A stretch of DNA of 27,743 nucleotides from an uncultured archaeon (GTDB lineage Archaea; Asgardarchaeota; Hermodarchaeia; Hermodarchaeales; Hermodarchaeaceae), in assembly GCA_964347045.1 (NCBI GenBank), contig CAYFXC010000025.1, positions 1 through 27,743 of the forward strand. The letters run 5' to 3'. Every line of letters starts with the position of its first letter. The first letter of the stretch is position 1. The notes under the pieces are model-generated. The model was not told the origin of the DNA. It saw only the letters and a program-made list of their open reading frames with translations, and made no database searches. A program made the position numbers and the translations under genes. Shown here one piece after another: positions 7,673 through 21,441 of this stretch.

Positions 7673-8059
7673 GTGGAACTCATTATGGAAATGATGGATG
7701 TTGGAAAGCTCTTAACTCGAATTGGTGCAATTCTCGTCATCATTGCTGGATTTGTACAAATCGGCGAATATGCCTTCTATAACGTTCTAGACATTCTCAA
7801 CTATGGGCAACTGTACATCATACCGATGGCTACTCTTGTTGCCGGCGTCATTGCAGTCGTTTTTGGATTCTTAGTTCTGTTCTTTTTCTTGCGTATGGTA
7901 GATAACAATCGAATCAATGCCGCAATTCTCATCATCATCTTTAGCATCATAGGAGCAGTGTTTGCTTTTGAATGGGCTGTCATAGGAGGACCTGGTGCCG
8001 TTTTATGTCTAGTTGGAGCCATTCTATTCTTCATTGAGCCTGAAAGTGAAGGAGCTTAA
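7673..8059 (+). CDS. Small 4-TM membrane protein
   Basis: Four hydrophobic segments; followed by a terminator-like hairpin. Confidence 0.75.
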   Translation: MELIMEMMDVGKLLTRIGAILVIIAGFVQIGEYAFYNVLDILNYGQLYIIPMATLVAGVIAVVFGFLVLFFFLRMVDNNRINAAILIIIFSIIGAVFAFEWAVIGGPGAVLCLVGAILFFIEPESEGA

Positions 8060-8079
8060 GCTCCTTCCTTCAATTTTTT
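8048..8079 (+). terminator. Hairpin plus T-tract terminator
   Basis: Perfect palindrome GAAGGAGC-TTAA-GCTCCTTC (8048-8067) then TTTTTT. Confidence 0.65.
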
Positions 8080-8120
8080 ATAACTGATGAAAAATTGCAG
8101 TTATCAGAGGATAGAAGCTC

Positions 8121-19634: not shown

Positions 19635-20048
19635 TCACATGTCTTTGCTGCGATCGGTAACATTGACAATAACCCACTCGTTTTCTGTGTTAACAAAGTG
19701 AAAGTAGGTATAGTGCACACCGACACATTGACCCATACTTAGCATCTGCCATTCAACGGTAGCAGATGCGATCAGATTGTCTTTCTGTACGTCAATTTGT
19801 TTGATACGTTTTATGAGACAGGTAACAGAAAAGTCTGGATTCTCTTCTTGTGTCTTTCGAATTCCATGGAGCTGGTTCGCAAGGATGGCTTCTGTAGCAA
19901 ATATGTAGAGCTCGTCGTTTGACCCAAAGCCAAAACGCCGTGCGTCTGGATGCCATACTTTCAGAAAGAGCTTTTCATCTCCTGTTTCTTGGGCTAAATA
20001 AAATAATCGAAGTGTTTCGCGAATTCTTTCTTTTGCCTCCATCGACAT
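19635..20048 (-). CDS. NTF2/SnoaL-like (putative lumazine-binding type) protein
   Basis: IRETL..FY.A..TGD...F.KVWHPDA...WVIVN pattern. Confidence 0.75.
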   Translation of the reverse strand: MSMEAKERIRETLRLFYLAQETGDEKLFLKVWHPDARRFGFGSNDELYIFATEAILANQLHGIRKTQEENPDFSVTCLIKRIKQIDVQKDNLIASATVEWQMLSMGQCVGVHYTYFHFVNTENEWVIVNVTDRSKDM

Positions 20049-20130
20049 ATCGTCACTTCCTCGTCACTGGTTAAATCACATCAGCGTGGCTTGGATGGGA
20101 TAATAATATGTCGAGTAGTTCTTGTAATAA

Positions 20131-20445
20131 AATGAGGGGGGAGAGCCCGCTTTTTGCCCAAAGAGGACTCTCCCAAGATGCCACTTTAGACACCGACGCA
20201 CTGATCCTCAATTTAGAGAAAAGAAAGTAAGAGTGATGTGCACTCCGATTATCCGCGAAACCGGAGTTAATTTGCCACCACTCTTTTAGCAAATCACTGG
20301 TAAGATGCTCTCGACGTCTTTTTCGCAGGCATCCGCGAATATTTAATCAAGTTCTTAAGCCTGCGAGCAACAGCTAGCCTTTATCGAATCCGATAATATT
20401 TCCTCGGATTTTAATGGCGTTGTTCTTTCAGGCTTAAAGAACTCG
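20131..20445 (-). ncRNA. Candidate structured RNA (or structured 3' trailer of the small-ORF transcript)
   Basis: Stems at 20422-20442, 20387-20410, 20323-20366, and three-way junctions at 20232-20298 and 20133-20210; G-U pairs only on the minus strand. Confidence 0.5.
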
Positions 20446-20547
20446 CTCCCGAATATATGATTCAAATATGCGATTCTTGCGGTGATTTTCTTCCTCAAGG
20501 TTAATGTGAGGTTCATTTTGTTTATCTCCCTTAGATTTGTGGGTCAT
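20434..20547 (-). CDS. 37-aa small ORF MTHKSKGDKQNEPHINLEEENHRKNRIFESYIRERVL
   Basis: Strong SD AGGTGAGGT just upstream of the ATG; stop codon lies inside a 7-bp hairpin. Confidence 0.5.
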   Translation of the reverse strand: MTHKSKGDKQNEPHINLEEENHRKNRIFESYIRERVL

Positions 20548-20643
20548 GGTTACCTCACCTCTTGGCGTTGAATCGAAGTTAAGTTTTTGACAGGCTGCAA
20601 GATTGCAGCTGAGCAATCCGATGCTGATTTTATTTACGCTCAG

Positions 20644-20711
20644 TGTCATTTTGATGTCACGTTGTGTCCCCCTTATGTCAAACCGGTATATTAATATTAC
20701 TGTATGTGACA
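20644..20711. promoter_or_regulatory. Helically phased TGTCA direct repeats plus an inverted copy around a TATA-like element
   Basis: TGTCA 20644, TGTCA 20655, TGTCC 20665, TGTCA 20676 (spacing 11/10/11); TATATTAATAT about 20687-20697; TGACA 20707. Confidence 0.6.
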
Positions 20712-20769
20712 ATGTTAAAATAGAAAATAACCTTCGAAAATGAAATAGCTGTAATCGGATTGATGAATT

Positions 20770-21441
20770 ATGGGTGATTATGAAAAAAAAGAGAAGCCAA
20801 AGGATTATGATGATTTTATTACAGCTCGCCCGGAACCTATTCTCTTCTTAACCGAGAAACAGGAGGCGGTAGTAAAAGAACATGGCGATATCATCCGGGC
20901 CATGGTTGGCAAAAATCTCACTGCAAAAGAGGTGCATGCCCTGTATTTTAACCCGAGCAAAGAAACCTATGATAAAACTATCAAGACCGTGTACCGTCAC
21001 CTCGAAGTCCTTGAGAAAGCCGAACTAGTTATGGAGTGTGGACATCGAAAGCCCCATGATAGCCGCCTAACCGAGAAATTGTTCTGCCGTACAGCCAACA
21101 TCTTTGTACTCGACGAAGGCAAACCCAAAGACAAAAGTTGGAAGAAAGATATTAGAAAAAAGATCATTCAACAACTTAGCGTTCTTATCCCTGAACTCGT
21201 TGAAGTTGAACTCAAGGATCCCGTAGCGTTCCAGAAAATAATGGAACAGTATTTTGAACAGCATGACAGTATTATAATGGAATTATGGCGAAAAGTTCCC
21301 AAGAATGAAGCAATTTCTGAAATTTTTCATGAAGCTAATCTCTGGGAAATTAAAACCCTATCAAATTTAGTCTCGACGTTTGGGGTCATGCTTCGCAACC
21401 CAGAACTTTGTGACAATTTTAAAAAAGCCCTCGGTAAATAG
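20770..21441 (+). CDS. ArsR-like winged-helix transcriptional regulator
   Basis: LTAKEV...KTVYRHLEVLEKAELV...EKLFCRTA. Confidence 0.8.
   Translation: MGDYEKKEKPKDYDDFITARPEPILFLTEKQEAVVKEHGDIIRAMVGKNLTAKEVHALYFNPSKETYDKTIKTVYRHLEVLEKAELVMECGHRKPHDSRLTEKLFCRTANIFVLDEGKPKDKSWKKDIRKKIIQQLSVLIPELVEVELKDPVAFQKIMEQYFEQHDSIIMELWRKVPKNEAISEIFHEANLWEIKTLSNLVSTFGVMLRNPELCDNFKKALGK

Follow-up and report, generated by a model that had tools for sequence, protein, structure and literature searches.

A conserved intergenic locus of one Hermodarchaeota genus as a probable small-protein mRNA with a modular non-coding tail

What does an Asgard archaeon keep in an unusually long gap between two of its genes? 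In the stretch analyzed here, contig CAYFXC010000025.1 of assembly GCA_964347045.1 from an uncultured member of the Hermodarchaeaceae (27,743 nt, hereafter "the window"), gaps between large open reading frames (ORFs) mostly measure tens of bases to about 100 nt, and one measures 721 nt (20049-20769). An initial annotation, made from the letters of this DNA, had placed a large structured RNA of about 530 nt with a small ORF on the minus strand of this gap. We conclude, with a probability of roughly 0.6, that the region is the mRNA of a genus-specific small protein with a modular non-coding tail of about 300 nt, ORF and tail forming one minus-strand transcription unit. The annotation was right in its outline, a minus-strand unit of some 530-570 nt that runs from promoter to terminator and carries a small ORF. 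As a conserved coding frame takes up about 215 nt of it, the region is not one globular RNA, and what survives of the proposed large structured RNA is the 3' part, which is non-coding, selected and equipped with hairpins that favour the minus strand.

A promoter and a small reading frame shared across the genus

The locus was recovered, by DNA and pattern searches, from 11 other genomes of the same genus and from a few metagenome contigs, and an 18-mer of its promoter core pulls the same locus out of public archaeal metagenome-assembled genomes (MAGs) and metagenomes. All genomes compared are MAGs. The comparison set comprises 18 sequences from about eight lineages, a number that gives little power for covariation; most comparisons were made on 15 of them, near-duplicates having been dropped, and all 15 homologous loci belong to one Hermodarchaeota genus. 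We refer to group A (the window itself, WIN, with L040, L011, L010, L009, L020 and L012), group B (L017, L015, L025 and L016), group C (L013 and L021), group D (L018), group E (L014) and group F (L019), and to L081 and L082 as single sequences outside these groups. Beyond group A, alignments were anchored on motifs. A phylum-wide search did not find the locus in the sister genus or in the rest of the phylum. The unit is single-copy in each genome, the window's own included, and always lies at this locus.

The unit opens with a promoter block (20683-20712, minus strand) that consists of an inverted half-site of the GACA type and, behind it, an 18-nt A/T-rich, TATA-like core. The block is identical in 12 of 12 same-genus loci, within flanking DNA that cannot be aligned. 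Four direct GACA repeats follow (20644-20679, minus strand), and both the repeats and their spacing of 11, 10 and 11 bp are kept in all 12 loci; the fourth repeat overlaps the first ATG of the long reading frame described below, and the inverted copy stands on the other side of the TATA-like core from the four direct ones. Judged from this layout, the GACA array is a probable operator array and the promoter region looks like a control region common to two divergent genes. The divergent gene (20770-21441, plus strand) encodes a 223-aa winged-helix protein with a weak HTH_20 match, which probably binds the GACA repeats, set one helical turn apart, and the conserved archaeal promoter with these repeats would drive the small-protein mRNA. 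A conserved Shine-Dalgarno-like motif lies a few nt 5' of the ATG of the 223-aa gene (20753-20762, plus strand). The family of this winged-helix protein has many paralogues across the phylum, with matches in 46 of 151 sampled genomes and at most nine per genome; among its members, only the orthologue of this genus is paired with the small ORF.

Behind the promoter, a long frame of 71 codons (72 in some relatives; 20434-20649, minus strand) is open in 15 of 15 loci. Frame 0, read from the ATG at 20649, contains no stops in any of them, as against 0-6 in the other five frames; its first segment always measures 105 or 108 nt, that is, a multiple of three. Inside the frame, a Shine-Dalgarno-like 12-mer (20551-20562, minus strand) lies 3 nt 5' of an internal ATG at 20547, and its GAGGUGA core, which ends 7 nt before that ATG, belongs to a sequence that we take to be complementary to the 3' end of 16S rRNA. 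The 12-mer is invariant in 14 of the 15 loci, silent third-codon positions included, the remaining locus (L019) showing a single change; in L016 the internal start is GTG in place of ATG.

The internal start opens a 37-codon core ORF (20434-20547, minus strand; stop codon 20434-20436), which carries a coding signature, a strongly conserved C-terminal peptide and a predicted, conserved C-terminal helix. Divergence in the core ORF is 0.30/0.17/0.40 by codon position, and five independent pairs of sequences yielded 29/23/58 changes (P = 7×10−5). In the segment upstream of the internal ATG the changes number 36/40/54 (P = 0.13), a periodicity that is not significant. The codon pattern is therefore significant downstream of ATG 20547 but not upstream of it, and on this comparison we regard the 37-aa product as a secure assignment and a longer, 71-aa isoform from the first ATG as likely, because the frame is kept open in relatives. 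A 92-codon ORF started by TTG, offered by the mechanical list of ORFs, was rejected, as its first part contains stops in relatives.

The small protein has no Pfam or NCBIfam match, and a profile search of 1.84 billion representatives returned seven related clusters, all of this small-protein family. An AlphaFold2 model shows one C-terminal helix (residues 51-70) at a mean predicted local distance difference test score of 63, which is low confidence. The two leader stems of the initial annotation fall within this frame: their arms (20609-20643 and 20594-20609) are in the sequence, but RNAalifold over the 15 loci yields 3 trivial pairs here and, on visual inspection, no relatives but the nearest keep the arms, so that a leader structure is not supported.

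A selected, non-coding tail behind the stop codon

When distant relatives are compared by BLASTN, similarity is continuous from the 223-aa gene through the promoter and breaks off at the stop codon at 20434. We considered, from such BLASTN end-points, that the tail might be confined to the four closest genomes and rejected this, since the offsets of its motifs are collinear across most of the genus. To judge the conservation of the tail, we used the four-fold degenerate sites of the neighbouring gene, at which the window is 38-42% identical to its closest relatives, 21-30% identical to most other relatives and 38% identical to L018; at such low identity, neutral sites are saturated. Within group A, by comparison, the first 120 nt past the stop codon have a mean column identity of 88%. 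Furthermore, in groups A, B, C and E motifs and helix arms of the tail keep a nearly constant distance to the stop codon. A 7-mer lies at +27/28, the arms of hairpin H2 at +72-74 and +101-107, an 8-mer at +129-137, and the base arms of hairpin H3 at +149-156 and +185-202.

This conservation is not that of a protein. The tail does admit ORFs of 40-73 codons, which would speak for a decayed protein gene or for chance folding of spacer DNA. The conserved blocks of the tail hold stop codons in all three frames, its ORFs are without a Pfam match and no NCBIfam match was found, and the region is conserved despite the saturation of synonymous sites; we therefore hold a decayed gene or a chance fold to be scarcely credible. 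On these comparisons the tail is taken to be non-coding and under purifying selection and, because it is selected, we consider it clearly functional.

The tail belongs to the small ORF. Its downstream neighbour in the window is an NTF2/SnoaL-like gene (19635-20048, minus strand), and across the loci the next gene past the tail is NTF2-like in 4, a DJ-1/PfpI gene in 7 and a convergent gene in 1. The tail is the same whichever gene comes next, and therefore goes with the small ORF and not with the NTF2-like gene.

Evidence from RNA is slight. One run of a wetland metatranscriptome provided a single informative contig of 182 nt, 88% identical to the window, which covers 20325-20506 and so runs from the 3' half of the ORF across the stop codon and through the first block of the tail. 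This weakly suggests co-transcription of ORF and tail in a relative. Nineteen sequencing runs contained only about 13% of the words (12% for the RNA run) and, the four runs that were aligned apart, gave no evidence of habitat or expression.

Separate hairpins in place of one fold

Against shuffled sequences, the whole 530 nt fold with a z-score of -4.6 on the minus strand and -4.2 on the plus strand, so that folding of the whole is not strand-specific. The strand preference expected from the initial annotation appears in the 3' 181 nt, which reach -65.4 kcal/mol (z = -5.0) on the minus strand and -44.7 kcal/mol (z = -1.6) on the plus strand, in keeping with the G-U pairs that were said to work on the minus strand only. 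In relatives, z-scores of the whole tail are unremarkable and strand bias is inconsistent; nor do relatives keep the pairing of 5' and 3' ends that folding of the full 530 nt suggested. The listed local hairpins could all be located in the sequence, including those at 20422-20442, 20388-20409 and 20323-20366, the one at 20230-20284, which contains an inner 9-bp stem, and the one at 20139-20174, each of these last two being followed by a U-rich tract. The larger junctions drawn around them fared otherwise, as closures at 20232-20298 and 20133-20210 are found neither in the minimum-free-energy fold nor in the centroid fold and are not kept in relatives. A 9-mer noted as recurring does occur in exactly two copies in the window, 80 nt apart, but 5 of 100 shuffles also give two or more and only its first copy is conserved.

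No known RNA class was recognized. Rfam 15 at gathering thresholds gave no match in the whole window, in agreement with the initial annotation; the best sub-threshold scores were 13-19.5 bits against cut-offs of 36-60, and none of the sub-threshold matches (E up to 10) lay on the minus strand in the tail. A scan for tRNA and tmRNA found nothing. For archaeal C/D-box or H/ACA guide RNAs, C/D-box models matched the tail on the plus strand only and far below threshold, and an alignment of H3 showed no D box or ACA box conserved at its 3' end.

The first module, SL1 (20422-20442, minus strand), is a 7-bp hairpin over the last two codons and the stop codon. Within the close group it shows one compensatory change, which is a compensated synonymous change in L010. 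RNAalifold on seven sequences of the close group preferred a long-range alternative (20340-20455, minus strand), in which the last codons and stop region pair with 20340-20363 and which is mutually exclusive with SL1 and H2. A covariance model of the long-range fold detects an eighth, more divergent copy in L082 at 81 bits, and with this copy included four pairs have double changes, a number as high as which was seen in 0 of 500 shuffles, the alignment having been fitted to the model. Distant lineages were not detected by the covariance model of the group A fold, even with filters off.

A stop codon within a hairpin, last codons with alternative pairings (SL1 or the long-range helix), a strongly conserved C-terminal peptide and two hairpin/U-tract elements ahead of the next gene are features that one would look for in a leader-peptide attenuator, in which translation of the small ORF would control read-through of H3 and T, the last two modules of the tail, into the NTF2-like gene. 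The initial annotation had suggested an attenuator at this gene, and we do not favour it because the downstream gene differs between loci, the same tail being present where a DJ-1/PfpI gene follows. The DJ-1/PfpI loci moreover have their own conserved block upstream of the next gene, and only in the close group do SL1 and the long-range helix, or H2 and helices 3 and 5, stand as alternative pairings. Antiterminator logic is not evident either: the 5' arm of H3 is duplicated by a conserved upstream copy rather than sequestered. An attenuator is accordingly very unlikely in our estimation.

The next module, H1 (20388-20409, minus strand), has on its 5' arm the 7-nt motif found at +27/28 past the stop codon in most lineages, a position kept in 10 of 18 sequences. 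At the place of H1 most lineages have hairpins of differing sequence, weak ones in group B and L081. A 7-nt complementarity between the H1 motif and the leader of the regulator gene was rejected as a candidate, since it occurs in this window only and is not kept in relatives.

H2 (20323-20366, minus strand) is a perfect 8-bp hairpin with a 28-nt loop (20323-20330 with 20359-20366), whose arms keep their offset in groups A, B and E. Over all 15 sequences 82.7% of its cells are paired, compared with 19-37% in slid controls. Since the sequence of each arm is conserved, its covariation does not exceed that of shuffles in the 15 sequences; the U-G pairs of groups B and E are compatible with the minus strand only. 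L013, L018 and L019 lack H2.

Downstream of H2, a conserved single-stranded 8-mer (20294-20301, minus strand) is located 12-20 nt upstream of H3, at +129 to +137 past the stop codon, and is present in groups A (2 of 7), B and C. H3 itself (20230-20284) and the U/C-rich tract behind it (20214-20229) form a terminator-like element at 20214-20284 on the minus strand. The sequences for H3 and for the T hairpin below were picked for carrying the element, so that their counts measure conservation where it is present and not how often it occurs. In seven loci of three groups the H3 base (7-9 bp) is conserved in sequence, the upper hairpin is of unrelated sequence between lineages and always paired, and total length is 55-57 nt in six of the seven; sense-strand z-scores of -2.4 to -6.5 are mostly better than those of the antisense strand. 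H3 is deleted in L010, and another hairpin takes its place in L009 and L012. H3 is not a genome-wide repeat, and a mobile or repeated element resembling a miniature inverted-repeat transposable element was rejected, since the genome has one copy and both the covariance model R1 and the H3 pattern match this locus only.

The probable 3' end of the unit (20125-20182, minus strand) is made up of the T hairpin (20139-20174), with an invariant 8-mer before it (20175-20182) and a U-run behind it (20125-20131). It is in the T hairpin that covariation is clearest: among six sequences, 5 of 14 consensus pairs show double compensatory changes, in addition to minus-strand G-U pairs. Among 14 loci scanned, 12 close the unit in this manner, by a hairpin whose 5' arm is rich in purines and whose 3' arm is rich in pyrimidines, followed by U6-8; the exceptions are L013 and L019. 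In relatives the run of U6-8 starts 5-8 nt past the stem; in the window it consists of 4 U and then AUU, and starts 7 nt past the stem.

Three further observations may be recorded here. At about 8024-8083 on the plus strand of the window, directly behind a gene ending at 8059, there is a clean hairpin in which purines dominate the 5' arm and pyrimidines the 3' arm, with U6 after it; its likeness to T suggests a wider use of hairpin/U-run terminators in this Asgard genome. L015 and L016 of group B carry an extra 210 nt or so between H3 and the terminator (about +205 to +470 past the stop), G+C-richer and strongly folding. Loci with a DJ-1/PfpI gene (L009, L011, L012, L040, L017 and L014) have, 20-120 nt downstream of the T hairpin, a conserved block of repeated 8-9-nt motifs, both direct and inverted, before the gene for this secreted DJ-1/PfpI-family protein; the block is absent from the window and may be the control region of that gene.

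The conserved islands might also act as DNA, in which case they would be inverted and tandem repeats to which transcription factors of the neighbouring genes bind. Such a role would suit the arms of H2 and of the H3 base, which are conserved in sequence without covariation, and it would suit the reappearance of an 8-13-nt tail motif just upstream of the start of the NTF2-like gene, by two 8-nt direct repeats 11 bp apart. The half-sites of the islands are, however, 28-45 bp apart with variable spacers, and the upper stems of H1, H3 and T change in sequence yet stay complementary, a property relevant to a single strand only. G-U pairs and folding energies favour one strand, and positions are fixed relative to the stop codon. 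We consider a role at the DNA level unlikely. The strand bias, the G-U pairs and the stems that change sequence while staying paired are the reasons why the tail most likely acts as RNA.

As to the DNA upstream of the NTF2-like gene, the identical 8-nt direct repeats lie at 20050-20057 and 20061-20068, and a 13-nt near-copy (85%) of the conserved tail region 20294-20306 adjoins them within 20050-20076. This near-copy may be a shared protein-binding motif, at the level of DNA or of RNA.

Possible roles of the tail and relation to known systems

We propose that the tail of this small-protein mRNA is built of separate modules, SL1, H1, H2, H3 with its U-rich tract and T with its U-run, and that it would be mainly cis-acting: 3' ends would be formed at two successive hairpin/U-tract terminators, H3 and T, with T as the probable 3' end of the unit. 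The tail may further serve to protect the mRNA of the small protein or to tune it, and to insulate this mRNA from the gene that follows.

Several results weigh against this proposal. The z-score of the whole tail is -5.2 in the window but lies between -0.8 and -3.2 in most relatives and is +0.4 in L019. RNAalifold on a MAFFT alignment of the tail in 15 sequences returned 0 pairs, a result that reflects the limits of the alignment as much as biology. With the exception of T, the hairpins show weak covariation, H2 and the H3 base being sequence-conserved on both arms, and SL1 is not significant across the genus (per-sequence P from 0.02 to 0.97; rough Fisher combination, P of about 0.09). The RNA contig is short, comes from a relative, is strand-blind and without transcript ends, and could be DNA carry-over. 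Hairpins are not known as a requirement for archaeal termination, and oligo-U is generally regarded as all that archaeal RNA polymerase needs; the conserved T and H3 hairpins are therefore unexplained by termination alone. Finally, the conserved single-stranded motifs and the conservation of helix-arm sequence exceed the needs of a simple terminator or stabiliser, and this excess hints at specific recognition by a protein or another RNA.

Such recognition would be central to a regulated dual-function RNA, that is, a small protein together with a conserved 3' domain (the 8-mer, H2 and H3) that acts in trans or sequesters a protein, as the full transcript or as a processed fragment derived from the 3' untranslated region (3'UTR). 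We keep this as a tentative possibility because unpaired motifs are conserved and helix arms are conserved in sequence. Selection on the tail is about as strong as on the coding part and falls at sites that a terminator does not need; the layout has a divergent regulator gene with a probable operator array, the ORF first and the RNA domain after it; and the RNA contig of the relative stops at 20325, where the first tail block also ends, which is a very weak hint. Modules of the supposed domain are nevertheless lost or replaced in some lineages, as in the deletion of H3 from L010 and the absence of H2 from three loci, and the family is narrow, being that of a single genus. A protein-binding scaffold, as named in the initial annotation, is likewise possible. 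The cis-acting tail of a small-protein mRNA is the reading that we prefer.

A divergent regulator gene, an ORF first and an RNA domain after it is also the layout of SgrR and SgrS-SgrT. By this analogy the locus could conceivably, although we would not expect it, be a riboregulator or protein sponge of Asgard archaea that is switched by the winged-helix protein, comes with a small helical protein and belongs to no described RNA family. It resembles SgrS/SgrT with sgrR in the transcription-factor gene that diverges from a shared control region. As a short transcript with a small 5' ORF, a structured 3' part and a terminator hairpin, it resembles the bacterial dual-function small RNAs more generally, namely SgrS/SgrT, RNAIII/hld, SR1/SR1P and AzuCR (bacterial dual-function small RNAs are reviewed in PMC12612679 and PMC12310071). 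It differs from SgrS/SgrT in belonging to an Asgard archaeon, in its longer, modular tail (about 300 nt) and in having no sequence or Rfam relationship.

Among archaea, the spRNAs of Methanosarcina mazei are likewise short transcripts that encode proteins of at most 70 aa and have possible RNA-level roles (PMC11456600; bioRxiv 10.1101/2025.10.28.685009). They belong to another phylum, have no homology to our locus, and have expression and Ribo-seq evidence, whereas the evidence here is comparative. 3'UTR-derived RNAs such as GlnZ from the glnA mRNA (PMC9731577) offer a further parallel, a conserved, structured 3'UTR that extends to the mRNA terminator and is selected independently of the coding part; unlike GlnZ, the Hermodarchaeota tail has a tiny ORF as its parent gene and is known from sequence comparison. 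H3 and T, as G+C-rich hairpins followed by U-rich runs, resemble intrinsic terminators, and T co-varies as a true RNA hairpin; unlike such terminators, the T-run of the window is short (4 U) and stands 7 nt past the stem.

Asgard archaea are the closest prokaryotic relatives of eukaryotes, and to our knowledge almost nothing is known of RNA-level regulation in them. The unit described here occurs in a single genus, so that it would be of wide importance only if a function in trans were shown. It is nonetheless compact and comparatively well defined, with a conserved promoter and its phased, probable operator array, a small protein with an unusually well-conserved ribosome-binding site and a long, selected 3'UTR that ends in probable hairpin/U-run terminators, and it can be used to ask how Asgard transcripts terminate, whether hairpins matter there and whether 3'UTRs regulate.

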